Assembly (NCBI GenBank): GCA_964615935.1
Contig: CAZTTG010000052.1
Coordinates: 1 to 41,987, forward strand
DNA from: an uncultured Planctomycetaceae bacterium
Lineage (GTDB): Bacteria > Planctomycetota > UBA1135 > GCA-002686595
Direction: 5' to 3'
Length of the DNA stretch: 41,987 nt
Notes under the pieces: model-generated
The model's database searches: none
What the model was told of the DNA's origin: nothing
The model's input: only the letters and a program-made list of their open reading frames with translations
Position numbers and translations under genes: made by a program
Part shown: in pieces, positions 717 through 30,427 of the stretch
Position numbering within the stretch: the stretch's first letter is position 1
Layout: each line of letters starts with the position of its first letter

Positions 717-978
717 CCACCCAGGACCGCTGCGTCACAGGGGTGGCCTCCCGCAGAGCCTCGATCACGCACCCCCCGAGTGTCCCACACAACGCTTCCC
801 GGTGCGATGCGGCCTCCCGTCCCCAGGGCAGAGGGTGGGAGGCCGCTCCTTTGGGCCGGAGAACGGGCCCTCCGGCGGTCGCGGGCCACCAGGGGGCCCG
901 GCCGGGGCGATCCCGCCCCGGCTGGCGCAGTGGATCCCTTCGGGTAGAATCCGCCGCCCTCGCCTCCCCGGGGGTCGA

Positions 979-14638: not shown

Positions 14639-14972
14639 TTCCTGCCGATCGCCGTTGGGTTTCGCGGTCTGCCCGCGGTGGGGGAGGGGTGCCTTCCGGG
14701 GCTCCGGATCCTAGCGCTCGTCGGTGAGGGGGCAATGCCCTGCCGGGAGCGGAATCGCGGCCCGCCCCTGGGAAGATCGGGCCGGCCGCGGAGCCCCGGG
14801 GCGCGATCGCTGGCGCCGGGCGGGAGCGAGCCCTACCCTCCACCCAGCCCGCCCGGATCCGCTACCTCCCGGTGAATACGGGGCCGGCGGACCGGTACCC
14901 CTCTCAAGCCGCGCCGCCCGCTGCCTCCGGGGCGGGCGCCGCGCCTGAAAACCCGCCTGCCGAGGAGTTCTG

Positions 14973-15545
14973 ATGCTCGCCCTCTTCACCGGATTCGACA
15001 TGGAGACCCTCTACTTCGTATCCGCCGTGGTCGGGGGAGCGCTGCTGATCATCCAGCTCGTGCTCTCCATCTTCACCGGTGGGGCCGACGCCGACTTCGA
15101 CGTCGACGTGGACGTCGATGCCGACCTGGACGGCGCCGAGGGCGCCGGCGGCATCAGCTTCAGGACGGTGGTGGCATTCGTCACGTTCTTCGGCATAGCC
15201 GGCATGGGGTGTACCCAGGCCGGCGTGGGTCCATTCCTCACCCTGCTGGCGGCGGTGGCGGCCGGGGGCTCGGCCTTCTGGCTCACGGGCCTCCTGATGG
15301 CCCAGCTCTACCGCATGCAGTCCTCCGGTACGGTGAGGATCGGGAACGCCGTCGGCACCGAGGGGAAGGTGTACCTGAAGATACCGGGCCGGAAGAAGGG
15401 CGCCGGCAAGGTGACCATCCCCATCCAGGGTCGAACCATGGAGTATCGCGCCATCACCGCCGGGTCCGAGCTGCCGACCGGTGCGCTGTGCCGCGTCACG
15501 GCCATTCACCCGCCCAGCACCCTCGAGGTGGAGGCGCTCGACTGA
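14973..15545 (+). CDS. NfeD-like (YqiJ-type) membrane protein with C-terminal OB-fold
   Basis: 190 aa with two hydrophobic segments and an acidic DADFDVDVDVDADLDG linker. The C-terminal GKVYLKIPG...GKVTIPIQGRTMEYRAITAGSELPTGALCRV is OB-fold-like. It lies immediately upstream of a flotillin gene, the classic NfeD–SPFH pairing. Confidence 0.7.
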   Translation: MLALFTGFDMETLYFVSAVVGGALLIIQLVLSIFTGGADADFDVDVDVDADLDGAEGAGGISFRTVVAFVTFFGIAGMGCTQAGVGPFLTLLAAVAAGGSAFWLTGLLMAQLYRMQSSGTVRIGNAVGTEGKVYLKIPGRKKGAGKVTIPIQGRTMEYRAITAGSELPTGALCRVTAIHPPSTLEVEALD

Positions 15546-15584
15546 ACAAGCCCGGACCGGAGCTCTCAAGAAGGGACGAGTAAT

Positions 15585-17267
15585 ATGAGCACTGCATCGA
15601 CGATTCTGGGCCTGGCCCCGCTCCAGGGCGCCGAAGGAGGCATCCCCTGGGGGGGCCTGGCGATCATCGCCGCCGTCCTGTTCATCCTCAGCATCGGGAT
15701 GATGGTGATAGCGCGCTACAAGCGCTGTCCCTCCAACAAGGTGCTGGTGATCTACGGCAAGGTGGGCAAGGAGCGCTCGGCCCAGACGCTGCACGGCGGC
15801 GGCAAGCTGGTGTGGCCCCTCTTCCAGGCCTACGACTACCTGAGCCTGGACCCCATGCAGATCGAGGTCCCCCTGACCGCGGCGCTCTCCCGCGAGAACA
15901 TCCGCGTCAACGTGCCCTCCTTCTTCACGGTGGCGGTGGGCACCGACCCCGAGACCATGGACAACGCCGCCATCCGCCTGCTGGGCCTGTCCAACGACGA
16001 GATCGAGAAGCAGGCCCTGGACATCATCTTCGGACAGCTCCGCCAGGTGATCGCCTCCATGACCATCGAGTCGATCAACCGCGACCGGGACGTCTTCCTG
16101 TCCAGCATCCAGACCAACCTGGAGCCCGAGCTGGAGAAGATCGGCCTGGTCCTGATCAACGTCAACATCACCGACATCACCGACGAGTCGGGCTACATCG
16201 AGGCCCTGGGCCGCAAGGCCGCCAGCGAGGCCGTGCAGCAGGCCGAGATCGACGTGGCCGAGCAGGTCAAGCGCGGCCGCATCGGGGTGGCCCAGGCCGA
16301 TCGGGACCGCGAGGTCGAGGTGGCGGTGGCCACCAAGGACAAGGAGATCGGCACCAAGGACGCCGAGCGCGAGATGGCGGTCAAGGTGGCCGACCTCGAG
16401 AAGGAGCGCAACGTCGGCGAGCAGCGGGCGGGCTTCGGCCAGGAGGTGCAGGTCAAGGAGGCCGAGCGCCAGATGCGCATCGAGGTGGCGGCCGCCAACG
16501 CCACCGCCGTCACCGGCGAGAACGAATCCCAGGGGGTCATCGCCGACTCGGAGGCCGCCCTGCAGGTCACGCGGGCCGAGGCCTACGCCCTGGGCGAGTC
16601 CAGGAAGCGCCAGGCCGAGGCGCAGGTGCTCGAGGCCCAGTACAAGGCCGAGACCATCGCCGCCCAGGCCAACGCCGAGAAGGTCGAGGCCCAGCAGCGG
16701 GCCCAGCTCGCGGCGCCCGCCCGCGCCCAGAAGGCCCGGATCGAGGTCGAGGCCTCGGCCGAGGCGGAGAAGATGAAGCGCGAGGCCGGCGGCCGGGCCG
16801 AGGCCAACGTGATCGAGGCCGAGGCCGATGCCAAGGCCATCTTCGCCAGGCTCGAGGCCCAGGCCCGCGGCGAGTACGAGATCCTGGCCAAGAAGGGCGA
16901 GGGTCTGCGCACCATCGTCGAGGGTTGCGGCGGCGCCGAGCAGGCCTTCCCGCTCCTGGTGCTCGAGCACCTGGACCACCTGGCGGAGGCCGCCTCCACG
17001 GCCATCTCGAACATCAAGTTCGACAAGGTCACCGTCTGGGACGGCGGCAGCGGCCAGGGCGGCGCCAGCGGTTTCCTGCGCGGGCTGGGCCAGGCGGTCC
17101 CCCCGCTCATGGACGTCATGCGCAGCATCGGCGGGGTCGAGCTGCCCGAGTACTTCGGGCGGATGTGCGAGATCGCCGAGGACGGCAAGGAGAAGGCCGA
17201 CGAGGCCGGGGAGGAGGAGGAGGCCGAGCAGGCCGCCGAGAAGGCCGCCGACTCCGAGGCGGAGTAG
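15585..17267 (+). CDS. Flotillin-family (SPFH domain, YqiK/FloT-like) protein
   Basis: 560 aa with an N-terminal TM segment, an SPFH core (VLVIYGKVGKERSAQTLHGGGKLVWPLFQAYDYLSLDPMQIEV), then a long Ala/Glu/Gln-rich coiled coil and an acidic tail. Confidence 0.9.
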   Translation: MSTASTILGLAPLQGAEGGIPWGGLAIIAAVLFILSIGMMVIARYKRCPSNKVLVIYGKVGKERSAQTLHGGGKLVWPLFQAYDYLSLDPMQIEVPLTAALSRENIRVNVPSFFTVAVGTDPETMDNAAIRLLGLSNDEIEKQALDIIFGQLRQVIASMTIESINRDRDVFLSSIQTNLEPELEKIGLVLINVNITDITDESGYIEALGRKAASEAVQQAEIDVAEQVKRGRIGVAQADRDREVEVAVATKDKEIGTKDAEREMAVKVADLEKERNVGEQRAGFGQEVQVKEAERQMRIEVAAANATAVTGENESQGVIADSEAALQVTRAEAYALGESRKRQAEAQVLEAQYKAETIAAQANAEKVEAQQRAQLAAPARAQKARIEVEASAEAEKMKREAGGRAEANVIEAEADAKAIFARLEAQARGEYEILAKKGEGLRTIVEGCGGAEQAFPLLVLEHLDHLAEAASTAISNIKFDKVTVWDGGSGQGGASGFLRGLGQAVPPLMDVMRSIGGVELPEYFGRMCEIAEDGKEKADEAGEEEEAEQAAEKAADSEAE

Positions 17268-17614
17268 CTCGCGCCGCAGGCGCACCGCGGCGGCTCCCGG
17301 TTCCGACCGGGGGCCGCCGCTCCTCGGTCCCGGTCACCGTCTGCGGATTTGGGGAATCCTAGGGTCGGGGCGCGCGGCGGCCGACCCACCGGTTCGCGCC
17401 TCCCGGAGCCTCGGGGGGGCGCGAGCCCGCTGCAAATCCCCGCCGCGTCGGGACTTGTGGTCTCCGTGGGCACGGAGGTCCGCGGCACGCCCCCGGGCGC
17501 GACGGTTGCGGCGCGCCCCGCCCGTTTGCCTCCCCGATACACTGGCTCCCGTTCGTTCGCCCGCCCCCCCGGGGCGCCGGCCTGCCGCGAGGGCCCGATT
17601 GGAGGGAGGTCGCC

Positions 17615-18352
17615 TTGAGCCGACGGCCAGAAGCGAGACCGAAGAGCGCGAGACGGCGCGGGCCGCCCGCCGCCGGCGAGGAGGCCGCGAGGCCCGGCGA
17701 GGACCGGGTCCTCGAGAGCCCGCCCACGAGCGAGGTCGCCGTCCCCCGAGCCGCCGCGCGCCGGAGCCCCTCCCGGGACTGGCGCACCTGGCTGGCGGGC
17801 GGCAGCTCGAAGGAGGTCCTGGCGCGGCTGGTGCAGGGGGATCCCCTCGAGCTGCGCGCGGTGGTCGCCGAGCGTCTGCGGGCTCGCGCCTACCTTCTGC
17901 CGGGCGACCGCGTCCATCTGCGCAGCCTCGCGCGCTGCGCCCGCCACGCCCTGGGGTACCGCGGACGGCCCCCCCTGGATGCGTGGCTCCGCGATCGGGT
18001 GGACGAGGCCATCGTCAACCTCCTGCGGGAGGATGGCCAGGGGCCGATCGAGGGCGAGGAGCCCCCGCTCGGGGAGCTCTCCTACTACCGCGATCTGGCG
18101 GCGCCCCTGGGCCTGGACCCGGCGGAGATGCGCGGCGTGTGCGCGGCCTTCAACCGGCTCCCCGAGCCGGATCGCGCGGCCTTCTGCGCGCTGGTGATCG
18201 AGGGCCGCCCACTGGAGGAGGTCTCGGAGGAGGCCGGGGCCTCGGCGACCGAGGTGGCCCGGCGCGCGCGGCGCGCGCTGCAGGCATTCCTGAACAGGGA
18301 GGTGACGGGGCCGACAGCGGATCCCCCCGCCTCCGGAAAGGCGGAGTCTTGA
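17615..18352 (+). CDS. Sigma-70 region-4 (ECF-type HTH) domain protein with Arg-rich N-terminus; TTG start with strong Shine-Dalgarno (GGAGGGAGG)
   Basis: The C-terminal CAAFNRLPEPDRAAFCALVIEGRPLEEVSEEAGASATEVARRARRALQAF matches sigma70_r4_2. The region-2 equivalent is at best degenerate. The stop overlaps the next ORF (TTGA). Confidence 0.55.
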   Translation: MSRRPEARPKSARRRGPPAAGEEAARPGEDRVLESPPTSEVAVPRAAARRSPSRDWRTWLAGGSSKEVLARLVQGDPLELRAVVAERLRARAYLLPGDRVHLRSLARCARHALGYRGRPPLDAWLRDRVDEAIVNLLREDGQGPIEGEEPPLGELSYYRDLAAPLGLDPAEMRGVCAAFNRLPEPDRAAFCALVIEGRPLEEVSEEAGASATEVARRARRALQAFLNREVTGPTADPPASGKAES

Positions 18353-18873
18353 AGAGAACGAGGAAGCGCGGGATCGAGGCTCTGGCGGCGAACCTCGATC
18401 GCCTGGCGAGCGGGGCCCGGGTGCCCGCCGAGGGAGCGGTCGCGTCGATCGAGGAGTGGAGAGCCCTGCGCACGGCTACGGGCGCGGTCCTCGGCTGGGT
18501 GAGCCAGCGCGCGGCCCGCGCCGAGCTCGAGCGGGTCCACCGCATCGAGCTGGCCTACCTCCTGCGCGAGGCGTCGCGACGTCGAATGGCCGCGGGCTCC
18601 CCGCCGGACGGCGCGCCCCCGGCCCCGGGCGACGCCCTCGAGCACCTCCGGGCTCGTCTGCGCGAGGAGCTCGAGAGCTGGGACCTCGACGGCCTGGCCC
18701 TGAGCCCCGACGTCCTGCGGGTCGCCCGCGGCTGCCGGCTCGGCGAGCCCACCGGCTGGCCCCGGGCCGAGGAGCTGGCGTGGGCATCGCTCCAGGTGGA
18801 TGGCTGCGCCGAGGGGCGGGAGTGCCTCCGCCGCGCCCGCTTTACGGAGGTCCGGGGGGCCTCCCGCCGCTGA
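18349..18873 (+). CDS. Hypothetical protein (about 174 aa) coupled between the sigma-like gene and the AAA+ regulator
   Basis: This is the tail of the long frame-1 ORF. A TTG at 18349 overlaps the upstream stop, the codon usage is GC3-rich, and it ends 2 bp before the ATG of the next gene. I recognise no domain. Confidence 0.35.
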   Translation: MKRTRKRGIEALAANLDRLASGARVPAEGAVASIEEWRALRTATGAVLGWVSQRAARAELERVHRIELAYLLREASRRRMAAGSPPDGAPPAPGDALEHLRARLREELESWDLDGLALSPDVLRVARGCRLGEPTGWPRAEELAWASLQVDGCAEGRECLRRARFTEVRGASRR

Positions 18874-18875
18874 CC

Positions 18876-21623
18876 ATGGGAGCCCGACAGCAGGACGCGC
18901 TCGAGCTGCTGCTGCCCGACGCCGCGCCCGGGGTGTGGCGGCGGGCCCAGAGGGTGACCACCTTCCTGCGGCTGCTCTCCAACGACGCGCGGCAGGCCTC
19001 GGCCGGGCCGATTTCGATCAACCTGGACCGCGCGCGCTGCGAGCTCGAGCGCGACCAGCTCCAGCGCGTTCGCGGCGCGGTCACCGAGCTCCTGCGCCAC
19101 CACCTGTACGCGGCCCTGGGGGAGCGGAGCTTCGCCTGGTTCGGCGAGACCCTGGGGACGCCGCAGAGCGCCTGGAGCGTGCTGGAGGAGCAGCGACGGG
19201 AGCTCCCCTGGCTGGCCTGCGTGCCCGGGCCCGGCGAGCGGCCCCTGGACGTGGCGCGCCGGCTCGTGCGCTGCGCCGAGCAGCTCGACGCCTCGCCCGA
19301 GCGCATCGCGCCCTGGAGGGCGCGCCTGATCCGCGCGGAGCGGGGACCCGCGGAGGGGGAGGCGGCCTTTCGGGAGCTGCTCGAGCCCGGGCGCGATCGA
19401 GCGACCGGGCCGATCGCCCTGGGCGCCGCCCTCCGGGGCGTGGCCGAGTGCCGACTCGATCGGGGAGCCGTGGGGCACGCCCGCGACTGGCTGGAGGAGC
19501 ACGCCGAGCGGGTCCTCTCCGACCCCCGGCTGAAGCAGCTTCTGGTGTGGGTCCGCCTCCTGCTGGGGGACGAGGACGGGGCCCGCACCGTGCAGGCGGG
19601 AAGTCACCCCTGGGTGGGGAGGCTGCCCGCGGCCCTGGCGGAGCTGCGGGAGCTGCGCCCCGACTGGCTGCCCCTCCTGGCCGGCTGCGCGCGCGGCGCG
19701 GCGGGTGGCGCGGTGCCCGTGGCCGAGGCCCCGCGCTGCCGGCGCGGCCTGGGGGCGTCCCTCCTCGGGGTCTTCGCCTTCCGGCCGGGCGAGGGCGCGA
19801 GGGCGGTGCACGTCGACGTCTCCCCCGGCCTGCGCGATCGGCTCGAGGACTGGATGGCCGAGCGCGACGGAGCCTGGGCGGTTCCCTCCGAGCCGGAGCA
19901 TCGCCTGGTGGTCTCGGCCGCCGTCTGCGTGGAGCACCGCGCCGGCGAGTCGCCCCTGCGCGGGGCGGTCGGACCCGAGAGCGCGCGAGCCGTGGCCCTG
20001 GCGCCGGTGCTCTGCGACGACGGGGAGGTGGCCGGCTGGCTGCGGGTGGAGTGCGACCACCACCTGCTCCCGACGGGGCCGGCCCTGGCGGAGGCGGCGC
20101 TCGGGTGGCGCGCCCGCGTGCTGGGCGCGCTGGCCTCGGCGCCGGGGGGGGAGCGGGACGAGGCCGGGCCCGGCGCGATGCTCGTCCGCGAGCCGCCTCG
20201 GACCGCGCGGGCCGCGGAGCCCCGGGCGGCGGCGCGGGCGGCCGCCGATTTCGTGGCGGAGCTGGGCATGAAGACCGCGCGGCGTCGCTGGTGGTGCTTC
20301 GCCCTCGACGGGTCGGGCCTGCGCGTCCTGGCGGAGGGGGGCGGCGCGCTGCGCGAGGAGCCCGGGGGCCGGGGCGCGGCGCGGGGCCTGCGCCGGGCCC
20401 TCGCCACCGGCGGGACGGTGCGCTTCGAGGAGCCCGACCCGGGCCTCTCGATCTGCTCCTCGGCGGGCTCGGGAGTGGTGCTCCCCATCCGCGCGGCGGG
20501 CGAGCTGATAGGCCTCCTCGCCGTCGAGTCGAGCCGGCGACGCGACTTCCGGGAGTCCGACGCCGACCGACTGCTCGAGCGCCTGAGCGCCTTCGGCTAC
20601 CGCCTGCGGATCGCCCAGCTCAGCGACTGGCACGAGTTGAACTTCGGCTTTCCGGTGCACTTCGAGAGCGGGGGATCGGGGCTGGGCGGGCGGGTGACCG
20701 ACCTCCTGGTGGCCGGGCGCTCCCGGGCGCCGGTCGTGATCTGCGGCCCGGCCGGATCGGGCAAGCGGGTCCTGGCCCGCTGGCTGCACTTCGAGGGCCA
20801 GGGGCGCGATGAGCCGATCGAGATCCTCGCCTGCGGCAGCATCGATCCCGCGCGGGCGGCCGAGGAGCCCTTCGCCCCGCCCGAGCCCCCCGGGCGGAGG
20901 AGGGCCACCGGTGAGGGGAGCGGACGCGGAACCCTGGTGCTGGACGATCTGTCCGGCCTGGCAGCCCCTCTTCAGGCGCGCCTGCTCGAGTGGATCGTCG
21001 GCCGCTCGGGCGGCGCGCGATCGGGCTCGAGGCGGCCGCGCCTGATCGCCACCTCGCGCACCTCGCTGGCGCGGGCGGTCGCCGCCGGCTCGGTGCGCTC
21101 GGACCTCGCTCAGCGGCTCGACCGACTGCAGCTCGCCGTCCCTCCCCTGTGCCGCCGGCGCGAGGAGATCCCGCCCCTGGTGGAGCTCTTCGGCCAGCGC
21201 TTCGCTCGAGAGGAGGGCCTGCTCGCGCCGCGCTGGTCCGATCCAGCCCTGGCGCTCCTGTGGCGGCAGCCCTGGGAGGGCAACCTGCCGCAGCTCGAGA
21301 ACCTGGTCTACAAGCTCGTCCTGCTCCACCCGGCCCGGGAGGTGGGAGGCGCACAGGTGCGGGAGGTGGCGCGCCGCTTCGGCCTCCCCCTGACGGAGCG
21401 CCTGCCCTCGCGCCATCCCGAGCGGGCGGAGGTCCTCGCCGCCCTGCGGACGACGCTCACCGGCAGGGGAACCCTGAACAAGACCCGGGCGGCCACCTAC
21501 CTCGGCTGGGATCCGGACACCCTGGTCAGCCGCATGCGCGACCTCGACGTCGAGGGACTCGAGGAGGGGTCCTCGCGGGCCGACACGGCCCCGACGGTCG
21601 TTAAAGACCAGGAGGAGCGCTGA
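18876..21623 (+). CDS. Sigma-54-activator-like AAA+ regulator (N-terminal sensory region, GAF-like, AAA+, C-terminal Fis-type HTH) with degenerate GAFTGA
   Basis: Walker A is VVICGPAGSGKRVLARWLH. Walker B reads GTLVLDDLSGL, with DD rather than DE. The arginine-finger and sensor-II region is RLIATSRTSLARAVAAGSVRSDLAQRLDRLQLAVPPLCRRREEIPPLVELF. The C-terminal HTH is NKTRAATYLGWDPDTLVSRMRDL. Where GAFTGA should be, the sequence is EEPFAPPEPPGRRRATGEGSG. A GAF-like segment (GVVLPIRAAGELIGLLAVESSRRRDF) precedes the AAA+ domain. Confidence 0.8.
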   Translation: MGARQQDALELLLPDAAPGVWRRAQRVTTFLRLLSNDARQASAGPISINLDRARCELERDQLQRVRGAVTELLRHHLYAALGERSFAWFGETLGTPQSAWSVLEEQRRELPWLACVPGPGERPLDVARRLVRCAEQLDASPERIAPWRARLIRAERGPAEGEAAFRELLEPGRDRATGPIALGAALRGVAECRLDRGAVGHARDWLEEHAERVLSDPRLKQLLVWVRLLLGDEDGARTVQAGSHPWVGRLPAALAELRELRPDWLPLLAGCARGAAGGAVPVAEAPRCRRGLGASLLGVFAFRPGEGARAVHVDVSPGLRDRLEDWMAERDGAWAVPSEPEHRLVVSAAVCVEHRAGESPLRGAVGPESARAVALAPVLCDDGEVAGWLRVECDHHLLPTGPALAEAALGWRARVLGALASAPGGERDEAGPGAMLVREPPRTARAAEPRAAARAAADFVAELGMKTARRRWWCFALDGSGLRVLAEGGGALREEPGGRGAARGLRRALATGGTVRFEEPDPGLSICSSAGSGVVLPIRAAGELIGLLAVESSRRRDFRESDADRLLERLSAFGYRLRIAQLSDWHELNFGFPVHFESGGSGLGGRVTDLLVAGRSRAPVVICGPAGSGKRVLARWLHFEGQGRDEPIEILACGSIDPARAAEEPFAPPEPPGRRRATGEGSGRGTLVLDDLSGLAAPLQARLLEWIVGRSGGARSGSRRPRLIATSRTSLARAVAAGSVRSDLAQRLDRLQLAVPPLCRRREEIPPLVELFGQRFAREEGLLAPRWSDPALALLWRQPWEGNLPQLENLVYKLVLLHPAREVGGAQVREVARRFGLPLTERLPSRHPERAEVLAALRTTLTGRGTLNKTRAATYLGWDPDTLVSRMRDLDVEGLEEGSSRADTAPTVVKDQEER

Positions 21624-22005
21624 CCGGTTGGTCAGCACCCCTCCCTTCCAAGATCTTCCGGTGGGAAGTTCACCTCATTCCGCGGCCCCCCCGGGCACGG
21701 GATGAGGATCTCGTATCAGAGCCTGTAACTCCAATGCGTTATAACGTCCGTCCACCCGACTTTCTGAATGCAATTGGGAGGAATGTTTCACGTCCGCAAC
21801 ATTCGAGTCCAGCCCTCACGAGCAACCCTGGGGGGTGGGGTGACAAAAAGGTGCCTTGTGGCTACGAAATGGATGTGAACTTCCTTCCCGAAACGCACTT
21901 GGGCCATGGTTCGCATTTGGGAAGTCCCAGGGCCGACGGGCCCCGATCCACCGATTCCGGCCCCGCTCCTCGACCAGGGGTCCGGGGCCGGCGGGAGCGC
22001 CGACC

Positions 22006-23085
22006 GTGAGGACCTCCGACTTCGAGTACGAGCTGCCCGAGGGGGCGATCGCCCAGGCGCCCGCTCAGCCGCGGGACCGCTCCCGGCTCCTGGTCCATCA
22101 CCGCTCGGACGCGCGCACCGAGCACCGCCACGCCGCCGATCTGCCGGACCTGCTCGCGCCGGGCGACCTCCTGGTGGTCAACGACACGCGGGTGATCTGC
22201 GCGCGCCTCCTGGGCCGGCGCTCCAGCGGCGGGGCGGTGGAGCTCCTCCTGCTGGAGCGAGTCCCGGGGGGCCGCGAGCGCTGGCGCGCCCTGGCGAAGC
22301 CCGCGCGGCGCCTGCGGGGGGGGGAGGAGCTCGAGCTGGAGGGGGGAGGGCTGCGGGCCCGGCTGGTCGAGCGATCGCCCTCGCCCGATGGCACCGCCGC
22401 CGGGCCCTGGATCCTGGATCTCCTCGACCCCGAGGGCGGCCGGACGCCCATGAGCGAGCTGCTCGAGCGCCACGGCCGGATGCCGCTGCCGCCCTACGTC
22501 CGGCGCCCCCGCGGTGAGGATCCCCGGCGCGAGCTCGACCGCGTGGACTACCAGACGGTGTTCGCCCGCCATCCCGGGGCGGTGGCGGCGCCCACGGCCG
22601 GGCTCCACTTCACCCCCGAGCTGCTGGCGCGGCTCGAGGAGCGGGGCATCGAGCGGACCAGCGTGACCCTGCACGTGGGCGAGGGCACCTTCCGGCCGCT
22701 GGGGGTGGAGCGCATCGAGCAGCACACCATGCACACCGAGCGCTACGAGCTGCCGCCCGCGGCGGTCGCCGCGATCGAGGCCTGTCGGGCCCGCGGGGGC
22801 CGGGTGGTGGCGGTGGGCACGACCAGCGTACGGGTCCTGGAGACCTGCGCGCGCCCCGACGGAGACCTGGAGCCCGGCGTGGGCGAGACGGATCTCTTCA
22901 TCCGTCCGGGGATCCCCTTCCGGGCCGTGGACGCGCTGCTGACGAACTTCCACCTGCCGCGCAGCACCCTGCTCATGCTGGTCTGCGCCTTCGCCGGCCG
23001 GGAGCGGGTGCTGGGCCTGTACCGCGAGGCCGTCGAGCGGGGGTACCGCTTCTACAGCTATGGCGACGCGATGCTGCTCCTGTGA
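22006..23085 (+). CDS. queA: S-adenosylmethionine:tRNA ribosyltransferase-isomerase QueA
   Basis: GTG start giving VRTSDFEYELPEGAIAQAP, the canonical QueA N-terminus. MPLPPYVRRP and LTNFHLPRSTLLMLVCAF are QueA hallmarks. Confidence 0.85.
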   Translation: MRTSDFEYELPEGAIAQAPAQPRDRSRLLVHHRSDARTEHRHAADLPDLLAPGDLLVVNDTRVICARLLGRRSSGGAVELLLLERVPGGRERWRALAKPARRLRGGEELELEGGGLRARLVERSPSPDGTAAGPWILDLLDPEGGRTPMSELLERHGRMPLPPYVRRPRGEDPRRELDRVDYQTVFARHPGAVAAPTAGLHFTPELLARLEERGIERTSVTLHVGEGTFRPLGVERIEQHTMHTERYELPPAAVAAIEACRARGGRVVAVGTTSVRVLETCARPDGDLEPGVGETDLFIRPGIPFRAVDALLTNFHLPRSTLLMLVCAFAGRERVLGLYREAVERGYRFYSYGDAMLLL

Positions 23086-23103: not shown

Positions 23104-23805
23104 TCACTCCTCGAGCGCCGACTCCAGCAGGCCCCGCAGCGTGCGCGCGGCGGCCGCGGGATCCTCGGCCGCGAGCACGGCCGAGCCCACCGCCACCCGG
23201 CCCACCCTTCCGAGCTCGTCCACGTTGTCGGGCGCGATGCCGCCGATGGCGAAGACCGGGACCGCCGAGGCGGCGCAGGCGATCCAGGCCCGGTCGGCGC
23301 CCTGACCGCGCTCGTAGCCCTTGGTCGCGGTCGCGTGGATGGGGCCGAAGCCCAGGTAGTCCACCGGCTCCACGGTGGCCCGCGCCACCTGGGCGGGGTC
23401 GCGGGTGGAGAGCCCGATCAGGGCCTCGGGCCCGAGCAGCTCGCGGGCGCTCGCCGGCGGGGCGTCGGACTGGCCCAGGTGCACCCCGGCGACGCCCCGC
23501 CCGGCGAGGACCGCCGCCACGTCGGGGCGGTCGTCGACGAGGACCGGCACGCGCTCGGCCTCCGCCGGCGAGAGCGCGTCGAGCACCCGCAGGGTCCAGT
23601 CCCGGGCGTCGCGGGCCGGGCAGATCCGCGATGCGGCCGCTCCGGCGGGCTTGGGGCGCACCTGGATCAGGTCCACCCAGGGCAGGGCCGCCTCGAGCGC
23701 CTCCAGGGGATCCCGCTCGCCGCACAGCTCCGGGGTGAAGAGCAGCATCACCCGCGCCTCGCGCAGGCGATCTCGCAGGGCCGCGCCGTCGAGCCGGTGG
23801 CTCAT
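23104..23805 (-). CDS. thiE: Thiamine-phosphate synthase ThiE
   Basis: 233 aa. LIQVRPK, the VLVDDRPDVAAVLAGRGVAGVHLGQSD region and FAIGGI are typical of ThiE (TMP-TENI fold). Confidence 0.8.
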   Translation of the reverse strand: MSHRLDGAALRDRLREARVMLLFTPELCGERDPLEALEAALPWVDLIQVRPKPAGAAASRICPARDARDWTLRVLDALSPAEAERVPVLVDDRPDVAAVLAGRGVAGVHLGQSDAPPASARELLGPEALIGLSTRDPAQVARATVEPVDYLGFGPIHATATKGYERGQGADRAWIACAASAVPVFAIGGIAPDNVDELGRVGRVAVGSAVLAAEDPAAAARTLRGLLESALEE

Positions 23806-24621: not shown

Positions 24622-25746
24622 TCAGCCCCGCCCCTCCTCCAGCGAGAGCCTCACGTCCGCCCGTACCCCCTCCTCCGGCTCGTTCCCGGCCGCCCGCTCC
24701 ACCGCCGCCAGCACCCCCCGATCCCGCCAGTAGCCCCGCACCAGGGCCCAGGCCGCCGCCTCCCGCACGATTCCCGCGGGATCCCGCTCCAGGGCCCCGA
24801 GCAGCGCGCCTCGACCCTCCTCCGAGCGGACGCTCGCCAGCGCCAGGGCCGCATTCCGCGCCAGCCCCGCACGCCGGGGGCGCCGCACGGGCGATCCCCG
24901 GAGCCAGGCAGCGAAGTCCTCATCCCCCCTCGCCTCGAGGAAGCCGCTCAGCCCCGTGCCCTCGAGCGCCGGGTGGAGGCCGAAGCGCTCGGAGCGATCG
25001 GGAGCGCCGGATCCCCATGGGCACACCTCCGAGCAGACGTCGCACCCGAAGACCCGGTCGCCGATCCTCTCCCGGATCCCCCGCGGCACGGACCCCCGGT
25101 TCTCGATCGTCTGGTAGCTGAGACACCGCCCCGAATCCACCACCCCCGGCTCGAGGATGGCCCCGGTGGGGCAGGCCTCCAGACACGCCGTGCAGGTCCC
25201 ACAGGATCCGGGAGGCGACGCCGTGGCGGGCTCCAGCTCCTGCTGCAGGATCAGCTCCCCGAGGAAGAACCAGGGGCCGAAGTCCGGGTGCAGGAGGTTG
25301 GCGGCCTTGGAGAGGAAGCCGAGCCCCGCCCGGGCCGCGTGGGAGCGCTCCAGGAGGGGTCCGGCGTCCACGATGGAACGGGAGGAGCCGCCCGCGAGGC
25401 CCTCCCGCGCCAGGCGGCGCGCGAGCTTGCGGAGGGCCCTCCCCAGGACCCCGTGGTAGTCGCGGCCGGCCGCGTAGCGCGCGATCCGGCCGCCCCCCGG
25501 CAGCTCGACGGCCGCCCTCGAGTGGGCCACCCCGACCACCACCAGGCTCCGGCCGCCCGCCAGGACCCGGCGGGGATCGGCGATGCGCTCCCGGTTGCGC
25601 TCCAGCCAGCCCATGTCCGCGTGAAGGCCGGCATCCAGCCAGCGCTCGAACCGCCGCCGGTCCGGCGGCGGGATCAGGGGAGCGATCCCCGCCAGGTCGA
25701 AGCCCAGCTCCCGCGCGATCTCCAGGACCCGATCCTCGGGGCGCAT
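24622..25746 (-). CDS. queG: Epoxyqueuosine reductase QueG
   Basis: 374 aa. Two 4Fe-4S cysteine clusters (CGTCTACLEACP, CDVCSEVCPWG) and C-terminal HEAT-like repeats match QueG architecture. Confidence 0.85.
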   Translation of the reverse strand: MRPEDRVLEIARELGFDLAGIAPLIPPPDRRRFERWLDAGLHADMGWLERNRERIADPRRVLAGGRSLVVVGVAHSRAAVELPGGGRIARYAAGRDYHGVLGRALRKLARRLAREGLAGGSSRSIVDAGPLLERSHAARAGLGFLSKAANLLHPDFGPWFFLGELILQQELEPATASPPGSCGTCTACLEACPTGAILEPGVVDSGRCLSYQTIENRGSVPRGIRERIGDRVFGCDVCSEVCPWGSGAPDRSERFGLHPALEGTGLSGFLEARGDEDFAAWLRGSPVRRPRRAGLARNAALALASVRSEEGRGALLGALERDPAGIVREAAAWALVRGYWRDRGVLAAVERAAGNEPEEGVRADVRLSLEEGRG

Positions 25747-26092: not shown

Positions 26093-27022
26093 ATGATCGA
26101 GTCCGACTCCCCTTCCACCGGTCTGACGACCTCGGTGGGCATCGATCTCGCCACCTTGAGCACCAAGGTCGCCGGTCTGAAGGGGGAGGTTCCGGCGGGC
26201 GAGATGAAGCGCCTGCGGGAGGTGCTCGCGCAGGTCGAGCGCAGCCCGGAATCCCTGCGGGACGCGGTCTCGACGCGCCTGATGGACGTCTTCCGGCTCA
26301 AGTCCAGCCGCGCCTGCTTCGGTCTCCTGTACGAGCTCAACAGCCAGCACCTGCTGGCGCAGGTGGCGAGCTGTTTGCGGCGCTACGCCAGCCGATCCGA
26401 TCCGAGGGACGTGCTCCAGGAGGTCTTCTTCAACGTCTACCGCTACCCGCACCGCTTCAACTGCGAACGCGAGGACGCCTTCCGAGTCTGGTCGGCCATG
26501 ATCGTTCGCAACACGGTCCTCAAGCACCTGCGCTCACAGGGCCGCGGCGGTCGGATGGAGGTCCCCTTCGAGGACCTGTCCGAGCAGCCCGAGGTCCGCA
26601 CCAGCAATCCGCTCCGCGGAGTCATCGAGCGCGAGAGCGACGGAGTGTGCGGGCAGGTGTACGTCCTGTACCTCCACCTGTACCTGGAGTTCTACGGCAT
26701 GCTCTCCGAACGGGAGCGCCGGGCCATACATCTGGTCGAGGTGGAGGACAGCAGTTACCGAGAAGCGGCCGAGGTGCTCGGCATCAAGCTCGAGAACCTG
26801 AAGATGGTGATCTTCCGGGCTCGCCGGAAGATCCATCGCTCCATGAGAAGAGTGTTCGACGGTCTTCCCCCGGACTGCCGTCCCGCCCGCGATCCCAAGC
26901 CCTCCGCCGCCGAGCGCGCCCTGCCGGAGCCCACCGGACTGAACCGGGACCTGGCCGGGGCGCCGGCTCCGCGAGAGGCCCGGGATCGTTCGAACCCTGT
27001 CAAAGGGGGTCAAGATGAGTAG
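26093..27022 (+). CDS. ECF-family RNA polymerase sigma factor with N- and C-terminal extensions
   Basis: Region 2 (LQEVFFNVYRYPHRFNCEREDAFRVWSAMIVRNTVLKHLR) and region 4 (LSERERRAIHLVEVEDSSYREAAEVLGIKLENLKMVIFRARRKI) are both present. It overlaps the next gene by 8 nt. Confidence 0.8.
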   Translation: MIESDSPSTGLTTSVGIDLATLSTKVAGLKGEVPAGEMKRLREVLAQVERSPESLRDAVSTRLMDVFRLKSSRACFGLLYELNSQHLLAQVASCLRRYASRSDPRDVLQEVFFNVYRYPHRFNCEREDAFRVWSAMIVRNTVLKHLRSQGRGGRMEVPFEDLSEQPEVRTSNPLRGVIERESDGVCGQVYVLYLHLYLEFYGMLSERERRAIHLVEVEDSSYREAAEVLGIKLENLKMVIFRARRKIHRSMRRVFDGLPPDCRPARDPKPSAAERALPEPTGLNRDLAGAPAPREARDRSNPVKGGQDE

Positions 27023-28073
27023 CGAAGGCCTGACCAGCCTGTGCGACCACTTCCAGCTGGACCTGTCCTGCCTGGTCGATGGTGAGCTCGAAGAGGTCGC
27101 CGCCACCCGCGCCATGTTGCACCTCGAGTCCTGCGGCGCCTGCCGCGACTTCTTCGAGGACACGCGCACCTGTCTCCAGCTCAACAAGGACATGTCCGAC
27201 CCGGACCGGCTCTTCGCCCGAATCGCGACCCTGACGGGGACCGATCTGGAGGCCGAGGTCCTCGGAATCGACCTGGTGAGCCGGCTGGCGACGATCTTCT
27301 ATCAACTCGGCAAGGCCTACCTGCTGACGGCCGTGGACGAGGGCTTCCGCGACCGCGTGTTCGAGCAGGCCCTGCCCCTCGAGACCACCCGCACCCGCGG
27401 CCGCGGGTTCGTGGATGGGGTCCTGACCTCGGGTCAAGACGAGGCCGGCGGCGTCGACTGGCGCCACGCTCGCGGCGTCCTCAACGGACGTCTCGACCGG
27501 ATCGAGAGCCCGATGGAGAAGGCCCGGCGCCTGCTGAGCGAGGCGATCGACGCCGATCCCTCCCACGAGGAGGCGCGCCTGTACCTGGCCTACCTGCACA
27601 AGAAGGAGGGCAAGAGGGTCCTCGCAGCGCAGGAGTATCGCCGCCTCTTCCGGTCGGCGATCGAGGAGAACAACCGCGGCCACGCCGCGATTCAGCTGGG
27701 AATCCTCAACGCGGACGAAGGCAGCTATCGCAAGGCCATCGCCTGCTTCCGCTGGATCACAATGAGCGGTCTGGCAGACCGCGACGGGCGGTTCTACGTC
27801 GCCCGCTTCAACATCGGGATGGACTGGGCGCTGGCCGGGAACATGCGGCGTTCCCTGGCGGCCTTCCGCGAGCTGCTCGACCACCACCCGGATCGCCTGG
27901 GTGAGGTGTCGGAGCTCTTCGCGAGCTCGCCCAAACTGCGCGCGGAGATCGAGTCGCAGGACGGCTTCCCCGAGGAGCTGCTCGCTACCTGCCCCGAGCT
28001 CTTCCGCAGCCCGCCCGATGAGGACCGCGAAGGGGATGGCGACCCGGCCTCGGCCGGGCCCACGGAGCTCTGA
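27015..28073 (+). CDS. Anti-sigma factor, ZAS-type (zf-HC2, HLESCGAC) with TPR-like C-terminal domain; no TM segment
   Basis: The H-x3-C-x2-C motif sits near the N-terminus, immediately downstream of the ECF sigma gene. Helical repeat content includes LYLAYLHKKEGKRVLAAQEYRRLF. I see no hydrophobic helix. Confidence 0.7.
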   Translation: MSSEGLTSLCDHFQLDLSCLVDGELEEVAATRAMLHLESCGACRDFFEDTRTCLQLNKDMSDPDRLFARIATLTGTDLEAEVLGIDLVSRLATIFYQLGKAYLLTAVDEGFRDRVFEQALPLETTRTRGRGFVDGVLTSGQDEAGGVDWRHARGVLNGRLDRIESPMEKARRLLSEAIDADPSHEEARLYLAYLHKKEGKRVLAAQEYRRLFRSAIEENNRGHAAIQLGILNADEGSYRKAIACFRWITMSGLADRDGRFYVARFNIGMDWALAGNMRRSLAAFRELLDHHPDRLGEVSELFASSPKLRAEIESQDGFPEELLATCPELFRSPPDEDREGDGDPASAGPTEL

Positions 28074-28075
28074 AA

Positions 28076-28738
28076 ATGAAACGCAAGACACTTCGGCAAT
28101 CGGCGACCGCACGGTACAGCGCCCCGTGGGTCGCGACGTTGGTGATGGCGCTCGTCCTGGGGACCGGGGGAACCCCGGGCTTCGCCGGTGACGGCGGCGG
28201 ATCCAACGAGGGCGGGGAAGAGGTCGGGACCCTCCCGGTCGTCTCGCAGAGGACCGCCCTCGACGAGCTGCCCTACGGCAAGCTCTCCGACCTGTACAAG
28301 CCGGCCTTCGTGCTGGTGGGCGACCATCAGGACATTCTGAACCTGATCACCTACGCCGGCGGCACCGGCTTCGTGACCGTCCACGAGTCCGCTACCAAGG
28401 ACCGGACCCTGTACGCCTTCCACGGCCAGGTCCAGGTGGCCCTCGACCGGGCGACCTTCGAGCTCGGGCGCGTGGCGGTCCACTTCCGGCCCGGCGCCGA
28501 GTACGTCGGCGGCCTGTCGGCCGTCGAGTGGGACGGCTACTGGAGCGGCCGCCGGGGTCTGAGCGTGCAGGGCGGCTTCTGCGTCCCGCTGGAGCGGCTG
28601 GTGAACGCCGGCCTGCTCGACCGGGCGCCGGCCACGCTCTGGAGCGCCAGCCCGAAGGGCGAGATCAGCATGCTGAGGATGTCCACCCGGGGCACCCAGC
28701 TCGTCCTCGAGCAGGAGCGCAAGCAGCTCGAGCTCTGA
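28076..28738 (+). CDS. Secreted hypothetical protein (220 aa)
   Basis: Signal peptide (WVATLVMALVLGTGGTPGFA). It starts 3 bp after the anti-sigma stop. No domain recognised. Confidence 0.5.
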   Translation: MKRKTLRQSATARYSAPWVATLVMALVLGTGGTPGFAGDGGGSNEGGEEVGTLPVVSQRTALDELPYGKLSDLYKPAFVLVGDHQDILNLITYAGGTGFVTVHESATKDRTLYAFHGQVQVALDRATFELGRVAVHFRPGAEYVGGLSAVEWDGYWSGRRGLSVQGGFCVPLERLVNAGLLDRAPATLWSASPKGEISMLRMSTRGTQLVLEQERKQLEL

Positions 28739-28831: not shown

Positions 28832-30427
28832 GTGCCCTCCGAAGGCCTCATGCAGCCCGCCGCGGCTCCGATAACCGGGGCACGGGGGGAACGCGCCATG
28901 GAACCGGTCTTCGCTCAGATCCACTTGCCCCCGGTGCTGCGCCCGGCGACCGCCCTGCAGTCCGACCTGTCGGCCGTGCTGAGGGAGGGGAGGGTCCTGG
29001 CGGGAGAGGTGCTCCAGAGCCTGGGCGGCGGCACGGTCCTGGTGGGGATCGGCCGCCACCGGGTCCCGGCCCGATCGCAGGTCGAGATGCAGCCCGGCCA
29101 GCGGTTCCTGTTCCAGGTCGTGGGGAGCGGCGACCAGCTCGCCCTCCGCCTCATCGCGCCCGCCGCGGAGGGGGAGTCCCCCCTGCTGCGCGCCCTGCGT
29201 CGGGTGGCCGGGCTCGATCGGCCGGCGGGAGAGCTCCTGACCGAGCTGGAGCGCGTCCTGACCGCCCCCCGCGGTCGGGGCGAGCTCGACTCCCCCGCCG
29301 CGGGACGGCTGCTGGCCGAGCTCGACGCCCACGTCTTCCGGGCGGGCCTCGGCGGGGAGGACCTGAGGCGGATCCTGCGGCGATCGGGCGCCGGCTACGA
29401 GGCCGGTCTGGTCCGGGAGGGCGTGGATCGGCTCGGCCCCGGACGCGTTCGGGTCCTCGGCCGCCAGCTCGCCCAGAACCTCCTCGAGGGCCTGGCGTCC
29501 TCGCCCGAGCCCCCCGCTGGCGAGCCGCCGGAGCGCGGCATCGCGATCCTCCGGGAGGCCCTCCGGGAGGCCGTCCTGGACGCCCTGCGCGGGGGAGGGG
29601 ACGAGGAGGGCAAGAGCCCTCCCCGGGCCCGCCCGCTCCCTGCCCGCGCCCCGGGCGGATTCGAGGAGCTGGCGCGCGACCTGCCCGAGATCTTGAGGAA
29701 GGGGATCGCGAGGCTGCCCGAGGGAGCCCTGCGCCAGCGCGCGACCGCCCGTCTGCCTCGGGTGATCGGGAGGCTGGGCGGGCTCGAGCTGCGCTGCCTG
29801 GTCGTGCGCATCCTGGGGGAGCCCCTGGAGGAGGGGACCGCCGGGGCGCGGGCGCGGGGCGCGGCGGCCGAGGGCATCGAGCCCGATCCGGCGCCGCTCG
29901 ACCTCAAGGGAAAGCTGCTCGCCGCCCTTCGCGAGCTCCCCGAGGGCCGGCTGCGCTCGGCCCTGATCCGCGCCGCGGGGGGCATCGAAGCCGAGCAGCT
30001 CCTCAACCTCGCGCGCCAGGAGTCCAGCGAGCCCCTGCACTGGAGCCTGCCCGTCGCCGAGGGGAGCCGGCTGAGCTCGGCTCACCTCTTCCATCAGCGG
30101 ACCTGGGAGGACGCCGAGGGCTCCCGGGCGCCGGGCGCACCCCTGCACCGATTGACCCTGGCAGTGGACCTGACGGGCACCGGAGCCGTGCGCGCCGATC
30201 TGGTGCTACGAGCGGGCTCCCTCTCCGTGCGCGTGCTCGCGGCCGAGGAGGAGGTGGCCGAACGGCTGCGGCAGGAGATCCCCGCCCTCGTCCAGGCCCT
30301 GGCCGCCGGGGGGCGCCGGGTCGGCGTCCGGGTGGACGCGGGCTCGCTCGAGGAGGTCGAGGTGGGCGAGCGGGCCCTCGACATCCAGCTCCTGCGCGAG
30401 CAGCACCTGATGGATGTGGAGGGCTGA
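28832..30427 (+). CDS. Protein with FliK-like C-terminal (hook-length control, Flg_hook) domain; start uncertain (alternatives at 28850 and 28898)
   Basis: The C-terminal LTLAVDLTGTGAVRADLVLRAGSLSVRVLAAEEEVAERLRQEIPALVQALAAGGRRVGVRVDAGS has the FliK C-terminal pattern (L.L.P..LG.V.V.L.....L.V.F.....EVR..L...LP.LR..L...G). The upstream part is Leu/Arg/Gly-rich. Confidence 0.55.
   Translation: MPSEGLMQPAAAPITGARGERAMEPVFAQIHLPPVLRPATALQSDLSAVLREGRVLAGEVLQSLGGGTVLVGIGRHRVPARSQVEMQPGQRFLFQVVGSGDQLALRLIAPAAEGESPLLRALRRVAGLDRPAGELLTELERVLTAPRGRGELDSPAAGRLLAELDAHVFRAGLGGEDLRRILRRSGAGYEAGLVREGVDRLGPGRVRVLGRQLAQNLLEGLASSPEPPAGEPPERGIAILREALREAVLDALRGGGDEEGKSPPRARPLPARAPGGFEELARDLPEILRKGIARLPEGALRQRATARLPRVIGRLGGLELRCLVVRILGEPLEEGTAGARARGAAAEGIEPDPAPLDLKGKLLAALRELPEGRLRSALIRAAGGIEAEQLLNLARQESSEPLHWSLPVAEGSRLSSAHLFHQRTWEDAEGSRAPGAPLHRLTLAVDLTGTGAVRADLVLRAGSLSVRVLAAEEEVAERLRQEIPALVQALAAGGRRVGVRVDAGSLEEVEVGERALDIQLLREQHLMDVEG

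Follow-up and report, generated by a model that had tools for sequence, protein, structure and literature searches.

Atypical bacterial enhancer-binding proteins (EBPs; VpsR, TyrR, PhhR, HupR, HsfA and NtrX), which have a missing or altered GAFTGA motif and non-consensus Walker motifs, act without sigma-54, either with the sigma-70 holoenzyme or as repressors, and have been called a possible evolutionary link (PMC6158489). The 41,987-nucleotide contig CAZTTG010000052.1 of an uncultured Planctomycetaceae bacterium (assembly GCA_964615935.1), referred to here at its full length as the window, encodes a protein of this kind at the end of a chain of three genes on the + strand (17615 to 21623). 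Gene 1 (17615..18352, 245 amino acids, aa) encodes a divergent sigma-like protein of the extracytoplasmic function (ECF) type, gene 2 (18349..18873, 174 aa) the short form of a fast-evolving helical/TPR family, and gene 3 (18876..21623, 915 aa) the atypical EBP. What is observed of this trio, namely its gene structure, the domains of its proteins, the lost motifs, the strict co-occurrence and the conserved cis motif, is best explained, with a probability of roughly one half, by a vertically inherited, lineage-specific operon of an uncultured high-GC Planctomycetota clade that would serve as a dedicated transcription-control module.

Gene 3 belongs with the atypical EBPs since its whole family is devoid of GAFTGA (0 of 65 members). 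It shares with them an AAA+ domain of the bacterial EBP (bEBP) type, a helix-turn-helix (HTH) at the C-terminus, the loss of GAFTGA and non-consensus Walker motifs. Unlike them, it carries a TPR-like, GAF, GAF N-terminus in place of a receiver or ACT/PAS domain, its L1 loop is deleted in most family members (only 8 residues are left in 52 of 65) and it is always encoded with its own sigma-like protein, an arrangement not described for atypical EBPs in the literature searched. Gene 1, for its part, resembles ECF (group IV) sigma factors in its sigma-2/sigma-4 fold without sigma-3, in its remote full-length profile homology and in the 4-nt overlap with the next gene. It differs from them in that region-2 models fail on it, D..QE is replaced by R..LR, its sequences form an isolated cluster and its partner is EBP-like rather than a recognisable anti-sigma factor. 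The text of the published ECF classification (PMC7826278) holds no sigma-54, AAA or NtrC context terms.

A regulatory link from EBP-type AAA+ proteins to an ECF sigma factor is also found in HrpR/HrpS-HrpL (PMC3105312). That system is a sigma-54 transcriptional cascade with GAFTGA-bearing, ATP-hydrolysing EBPs, whereas the EBP-like protein of the trio lacks GAFTGA and is encoded downstream of the sigma-like gene. The trio differs from the PhyR/NepR/EcfG partner switch, which belongs to another lineage, in having neither a receiver domain nor a NepR-like small anti-sigma factor. The output and ATPase modules of gene 3 are not those of TPR one-component regulators (PlcR/RNPP, MalT domain III), and peptide-signal genes are not evident. 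Both components are of known kinds, an atypical EBP and an ECF-like sigma. The literature searched held no instance of their strict pairing, of the TPR-GAF-GAF architecture or of the rewritten region 2.2.

Linkage and gene structure of the trio

One genome per species was scanned with a pattern taken from the HTH of gene 3 (YLGWD[PT]DT), which retrieved 78 loci with gene 3 relatives, all from Planctomycetota metagenome-assembled genomes (MAGs) of 61-76% GC. In 68/68 loci with enough upstream DNA, gene 3 is immediately preceded by a gene 1 homologue on the same strand; the other 10 have less than 760 nt on that side. The reverse search, from gene 1 (15 query sequences) into metagenomes, gave 37 loci. 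Those with about 1.1 kb or more of downstream DNA number 28 and all carry gene 3; the remaining nine stop within about 520 nt. Across these 96 informative loci nothing except gene 2 parts genes 1 and 3, and the linkage holds even where gene 3 identity drops to 33%. The co-occurrence of homologues in other genomes, by which an earlier reading made from the sequence alone (the sequence-only reading) had proposed to judge the trio, is thus found in genome and metagenome loci alike. In evolutionary terms, genes 1 and 3 are an obligate pair, which gene 2 joins as an optional third.

The G+C content of the window is about 74%, which produces spurious long open reading frames (ORFs) in all frames, and the true reading frames were resolved by codon-position GC (GC3). 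The GC3 frame switches coincide exactly with the gene boundaries: frame 2 at about 17600-18330, frame 1 at about 18330-18870 and frame 0 at about 18850-21620. The TTG start of gene 1 at 17615 has the Shine-Dalgarno sequence GGAGGGAGG just 5' of it. The TTG start of gene 2 at 18349 overlaps the gene 1 stop (TGA, 18350-18352) in a 4-nt TTGA unit, and the stop of gene 2 (TGA, 18871-18873) is followed by 'cc' and then by the ATG of gene 3 at 18876, a gap of 2 nt. Both junctions can be read directly in the sequence as originally described, and the three tightly chained, co-oriented genes are borne out by GC3, by homologues and by public gene calls. Calls on near-identical contigs give the same products of 245, 174 and 915 aa, and the exact proteins of all three genes occur in public collections. 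Since GC3 frames, start and stop signals and public gene calls agree, the trio is real and correctly delimited. The stretch 17200-21900 showed neither a sigma-70-type promoter nor an intrinsic terminator. Some public gene calls give a shorter, 173-aa version of gene 1. Three long ORFs on the - strand face the real genes (14904-17285, 793 aa; 16583-17947, 454 aa; 18555-21638, 1027 aa); GC3 marks them as artefacts of the 74% G+C, to be left out of any annotation.

The NTGA overlap, with the gene 2 start lying 3 nt short of the gene 1 end, recurs in 42/60 related loci. At the gene 2/gene 3 junction, 22 of 55 loci have an overlap and a further 12 a spacing of 0-10 nt (34/55 together). Given this recurrence, the tight junctions of the trio are not a chance feature of one genome. 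Where gene 2 is missing, gene 3 stands directly behind gene 1. Of seven such loci measured, six have a spacing of -4 to 32 nt and one a spacing of 107 nt.

It could be argued that the adjacency has no functional meaning and that the region has merely been inherited vertically with little rearrangement. All the loci do come from one phylum-level lineage, and queA (21856-23085, + strand) and thiE (23104-23805, - strand), downstream of the trio, keep their position in most of them. The flanks vary, however, with extra genes inserted between gene 3 and queA in many loci and NfeD-like/flotillin genes preceding gene 1 in no more than about 17, whereas nothing but gene 2 comes between genes 1 and 3 in the 96 informative loci. 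Because the flanks are variable, the stop/start overlaps conserved and the upstream motif (see below) specific to the operon, synteny by vertical inheritance alone is a very improbable explanation.

The AAA+ protein encoded by gene 3

The sequence-only reading had given gene 3 a GAF, AAA+ and Fis-type HTH layout. These parts are present, but the protein also has a TPR-like solenoid at its N-terminus and one more GAF domain. From the N-terminus, gene 3 consists of a TPR-like alpha-solenoid (18897..19685, residues 8-270), a first GAF domain missed by Pfam (19740..20135, residues 289-420), a second GAF domain (20214..20573, residues 447-566; Pfam GAF, 25.8 bits, cutoff 22.4), a sigma-54-activator-type AAA+ domain with degenerate catalytic motifs (20691..21155, residues 606-760), its lid (21156..21356, residues 761-827; Pfam AAA_lid_14, 42.2 bits) and a Fis-type HTH, NKTRAATYLGWDPDTLVSRM (21477..21536), all on the + strand. 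The origin of the AAA+ domain is clear from Pfam (Sigma54_activat, PF00158, 48.6 bits with a cutoff of 20.2; Sigma54_activ_2, PF14532, 51.9 bits) and from phmmer searches of PDB sequences, in which ZraR (1.6e-25) and NtrX (1.4e-24) were matched. NtrX is also the best NCBIfam match of gene 3, far under cutoff. Pfam HTH_8 matches weakly (14.7 bits, under its cutoff), and the segment aligns to the HTH of ZraR.

In the alignment to ZraR, gene 3 has PPEPPGRRRATGEGSG where the GAFTGA segment would be, and residues are lost on balance. The segment ELFGHEKGAFTGADKRREGRF pairs with EPFAPPEPP--G---RRRATGEG, and the L1 loop position is taken by EPFAPPEPPGRRRATGEGSG (20865..20924). Walker A (GPAGSGK, 20745-20765) keeps its lysine; Walker B (LVLDD, 20934..20948) has an aspartate where bEBPs carry the catalytic glutamate; and the sensor II motif GN(I/L)RELEN reads GNLPQLEN (21279-21302), with proline in place of arginine.

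To describe the family, 25 full-length homologues with 37-51% identity were aligned, every one of them from a Planctomycetota MAG or metagenome, and with 64 further homologues from the genome loci family statistics (n=65) were drawn up. None of the 65 has a GAFTGA-like motif. The 52 relatives with only 8 residues in the L1 region mark the 20-residue filler of the window as lineage-specific. The Walker A lysine is K in 52 and R in 13; the catalytic Walker B position is D in 28, G in 17, E in 7 and another residue in 13; the two arginine fingers are present in 36/65 and 43/65, and the sensor II arginine in 52/65. The HTH is by contrast the best-conserved stretch of the family (NKtRAAlyLGWDPDTLvaRm, at least 90% conserved).

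The substitution of Asp for Glu in Walker B, singled out by the sequence-only reading, is seen in LVLDD but is not a defining variant, because this position varies from one family member to another, as do the arginine fingers and sensor II; judged from the alignment, DD is one state of a position not under selection. The AAA+ domain thus looks like a degenerate ATPase overall that probably still binds nucleotide.

The absence of GAFTGA from this activator-like protein, the starting point of the sequence-only reading, was upheld. The strong homology of gene 3 to bEBP AAA+ domains might in principle indicate a normal sigma-54 activator whose GAFTGA was lost to a sequencing error or frameshift. 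Yet no GAFTGA-like peptide is encoded in any of the six frames of the window, gene 3 reads through without a break and with uniform GC3, independent assemblies contain the identical protein and all 65 homologues lack the motif. The six-frame search and the family count refute an artefact, and this explanation carries practically no weight.

The sigma-like protein and the accessory gene

Gene 1 was originally taken for a region-4 protein with at best a degenerate region 2. Its sigma-4 HTH is confirmed, and a sigma-2 fold is present too. The sigma-2-like four-helix domain (17780..18037, residues 56-141), with the region 2.2 helix GDRVHLRSLARCARHAL, is followed by the conserved pre-sigma-4 helices LARPLGLDPA.MR..CAAFN and then by the sigma-4 HTH (18068..18295, residues 152-227). 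The AlphaFold model (pLDDT 83, above 90 for residues 60-225) matches the sigma-2 and sigma-4 structures of ECF sigma factors. It comprises just these two domains and a disordered N-terminus, and Pfam finds no receiver domain. Residues 1-55 (17615-17779) are Arg/Pro/Ala-rich, predicted to be disordered and not conserved.

Sequence models recover much less of this relationship. The sole Pfam match of gene 1 is Sigma70_r4_2 (residues 178-224, 25.7 bits, exactly at cutoff), which identifies the sigma-4 domain (PF08281/PF04545), without a match to the region 2 model PF04542, and TIGR02937 reaches 24.9 bits against a cutoff of 42.9, in region 4 only. Among 59 family members, Sigma70_r4_2 is matched by 21 and Sigma70_r2 by a single one (E 0.18). 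The family profile found no sigma factor among PDB sequences, and when searched against 1.84 billion proteins it gathered only 962 cluster representatives, so the family does not merge with ordinary ECFs. Profile-profile comparison with hhalign nevertheless relates the family to an ECF alignment with 91% probability (E 9.5e-7, 169 columns, both domains), the control against the gene 2 family giving 0.2%; the ECF alignment comprised eight sequences, namely E. coli RpoE, entered by hand, and seven from the loci and the window. The sequence-only reading had held that region-2 homology would make gene 1 an ordinary ECF sigma. Remote homology does exist, but the family is isolated and the Pfam and NCBIfam region-2 models fail on it, which together with the PDB result led to the rejection of an ordinary ECF. 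The window provides an internal contrast in a canonical ECF sigma gene (26093-27022, + strand; Pfam r2 1e-11, and r4_2), overlapped by the gene for a zf-HC2/TPR anti-sigma factor (27015-28073, + strand).

The sigma-2 loop and WL motif form the -10 recognition region in ECFs, and region 2.2 is the main contact of an ECF sigma with the beta-prime clamp helices. The hhalign register pairs the ECF loop FRG.S.F..WL with YRGRPPLDAWL in gene 1, where W124 is invariant. In region 2.2, it places R99, L102, R103 and L105 opposite D48, Q51, E52 and F54 (RpoE numbering), which are invariant in the eight ECFs. The four gene 1 residues are themselves conserved in 90% or more of their family. Such conservation suggests that the change from D..QE to R..LR is a remodelling and not decay.

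These features are open to a second interpretation, which is less probable than the dedicated module and yet the strongest of its competitors: that gene 1 is a sigma-derived adaptor, in principle like PhyR's sigma-like domain, whose remodelled sigma-2 surface binds the gene 3 protein, the gene 2 protein or both, and not RNA polymerase. DNA, such as the GGGGAAT core discussed below, may be bound by its sigma-4 HTH. The module would in that case be a heteromeric transcription factor that acts together with the housekeeping holoenzyme. Such an adaptor would fit the conserved basic R..LR in region 2.2, the failure of Pfam and NCBIfam sigma models on region 2, the empty PDB search, a family of 962 that does not reach ordinary ECFs and an upstream motif that is a single block without a -10 partner at ECF spacing. 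It fits less well with the conserved sigma-2 loop and WL motif and with a sigma-2/linker/sigma-4 layout and size that are those of a working ECF; moreover, gene 1 has neither a receiver domain nor any other partner-switch hallmark of the kind seen in PhyR, and the lack of a receiver domain also eliminates a PhyR-type sigma mimic. The retention of the -10-loop features and of the overall ECF layout makes a sigma factor somewhat more likely than an adaptor.

Gene 2 has no Pfam or NCBIfam family match, and its database relatives are only two, one identical and one with 90% identity. A co-oriented ORF occupies this position in 60/68 related loci. By phmmer, 50 of these 60 middle genes cluster with gene 2 of the window, and an iterated hidden Markov model (HMM) gathers 51. 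Full-length members have about 280-330 aa (for example, L009:7021-7986 and L007:7084-7956), with a C-terminal half that is TPR-like; a few match Pfam TPR models, and the family profile matches designed PPR/TPR proteins, MamA and LapB (best 5e-11). The window copy corresponds to HMM positions 1-142 of 281 and lies mostly before the TPR part. Gene 2 is entirely absent in eight lineages (L027, L038, L041, L044, L061, L063, L064 and L076). By this comparison, the window gene 2 appears to be a truncated copy of a longer TPR protein that is dispensable in some lineages. Its family shows a weak, collinear similarity to the TPR-like domain of gene 3 (18897-19685; hhalign 31-39%), from a copy of which it could have arisen. 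No gene 1-gene 2 fusion was seen among 232 proteins including about 190 members of the gene 1 family.

The position of gene 2 raises the question of whether it encodes a cytoplasmic anti-sigma factor for a gene 1 sigma, gene 3 then being a separate, co-transcribed one-component regulator. A 4-nt overlap after a sigma gene is the classic ECF/anti-sigma layout, and gene 2 is fast-evolving with TPRs, like the anti-sigma of the canonical pair at 26093-28073. But Pfam detected no zf-HC2 or anti-sigma domain in gene 2 and no zf-HC2 in 50 family members, and hhalign to the window's own zf-HC2/TPR anti-sigma factor gives 3%, results that dispose of a class I (zinc- or ASD-type) anti-sigma. Gene 2 is also missing in eight lineages, with gene 3 then directly behind gene 1, and truncated in many, while gene 3 is never missing. 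This repeated loss weakens the sigma/anti-sigma pairing, which seems unlikely.

Upstream motifs and proposed mode of action

An operon-specific 12-mer, GATTTGGGGAAT, lies at 17346..17357 on the + strand, 258 nt upstream of the gene 1 start, and is a candidate operator or promoter element. Its family consensus is c.cCGt-N5-GAA.TGGGGAAT, with CCGT 5 nt upstream of GAA.TGGGGAAT. Gibbs sampling of the DNA upstream of gene 1 scored this motif at 14 bits, compared with 6.8 in shuffles. A strict regular expression found it 44 times in 1.15 Mb of related loci, where 8 matches were expected. Of the 44, 40 lie on the + strand and no more than 700 nt upstream of the gene 1 homologue, and most related loci have the motif there. 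Across loci it sits 100-450 nt from the gene 1 start codon, and it has a single match within the 42-kb window.

In most relatives, a second motif, GGATCCTAGC, lies 45-60 nt upstream of the 12-mer; in the window its variant GAATCCTAGG (17354..17363, + strand) overlaps the 12-mer. Matches to ATCCTAG on the + strand lie upstream of gene 1 in 25 of 37 cases, and full 10-mer matches mostly precede either gene 1 or the NfeD-like gene. A further site in the window (14706-14715, + strand) is upstream of the NfeD-like/flotillin genes, and the common motif suggests that this unit and the trio share regulation.

The GGAAT core of the 12-mer resembles ECF -35 elements. No conserved -10 partner at ECF spacing accompanies it. 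Most simply, the upstream motifs would be protein-binding DNA sites specific to the trio operon, consistent with autoregulation. Two other roles were considered and set aside. A leader-peptide start (NTG GGG AAT) found no support, as 20 of 52 loci have no start codon there, the ORFs range from 4 to 436 codons and no conserved peptide emerged from the 52 loci. Nor did a structured RNA, for which there was no Rfam match, no covariation and an RNAalifold value of -0.09 kcal/mol.

A self-contained transcription module of a sigma-like and an activator-like protein, as put forward in the sequence-only reading, is plausible. The three proteins would be made from a single transcript with coupled translation. 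Gene 1 would supply a highly divergent ECF-type sigma-like protein of sigma-2/sigma-4 layout. Gene 3, without the sigma-54-contacting loop or conserved ATP-hydrolysis residues, keeps the P-loop, two GAF sensors, an N-terminal TPR protein-binding solenoid and a near-invariant DNA-binding HTH; it would sit on DNA and sense a small ligand through its GAF domains. Its TPR solenoid, its degenerate AAA+ surface or both would then control the activity of the gene 1 protein. This control could take either of two directions: gene 3 could act as a recruitment-type co-activator on a sigma-70-family holoenzyme, like other atypical EBPs, or it could hold and then release the gene 1 protein. Neither mode would involve ATP-driven remodelling of sigma-54. 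Gene 2 would be an accessory TPR-type partner, shortened or lost in some lineages, and the operon-specific motif upstream of gene 1 a likely autoregulatory site.

Several points weigh against such a module. Contact between the proteins, binding of RNA polymerase by gene 1 and the DNA targets are inferred from sequence. The 12-mer is not a recognisable bipartite ECF promoter, and gene 1 may not bind core polymerase in the usual way, since R99, L102 and R103 replace the clamp-contacting D, Q and E. Part of the linkage signal is vertical inheritance, as queA and thiE are syntenic too, and all homologues come from MAGs or metagenomes of uncultured organisms.

A more specific proposal, doubtful at present, is that gene 1 is a working, ECF-derived 'activator-dependent' sigma, whose basic region 2.2 and pre-sigma-4 helices would dock the EBP-derived AAA+ protein. 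If true, genes 1 and 3 would be an obligate co-evolved pair bridging the sigma-54/EBP and sigma-70 modes of activation.

Beyond queA and thiE lies a queG-like gene for epoxyqueuosine reductase (24622-25746, - strand). An ORF for an unknown protein of 220 aa (28076-28738) and a gene for a FliK-like protein (28832-30427) follow the canonical ECF sigma/anti-sigma pair. The start of the window (802-7184, + strand) holds a translocation-and-assembly-module pair, of which the first gene is TamB-like (802-5124) and the second of the Omp85/POTRA type (5001-7184); as these ORFs overlap by about 120 nt, the second gene probably starts further downstream. An anti-phage defence system was also considered and rejected, PADLOC having returned only generic RtcR/PspF AAA-HTH matches.

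Should genes 1 and 3 be merely co-transcribed regulators, the finding would shrink to two new lineage-specific protein families. The gene 1 family consists of ECF-like sigmas that Pfam-based ECF censuses would miss, and it represents a natural experiment in which the core-binding helix of sigma-2 has been rewritten. Few atypical EBPs are known and each has been studied singly; the re-use with sigma-70-family polymerases of an AAA+ scaffold made for remodelling sigma-54 is an open question. An atypical EBP family locked genetically to its own sigma-like protein in at least 78 species-level lineages would offer a defined pair in which contact between an EBP and a sigma-70-family protein can be approached.

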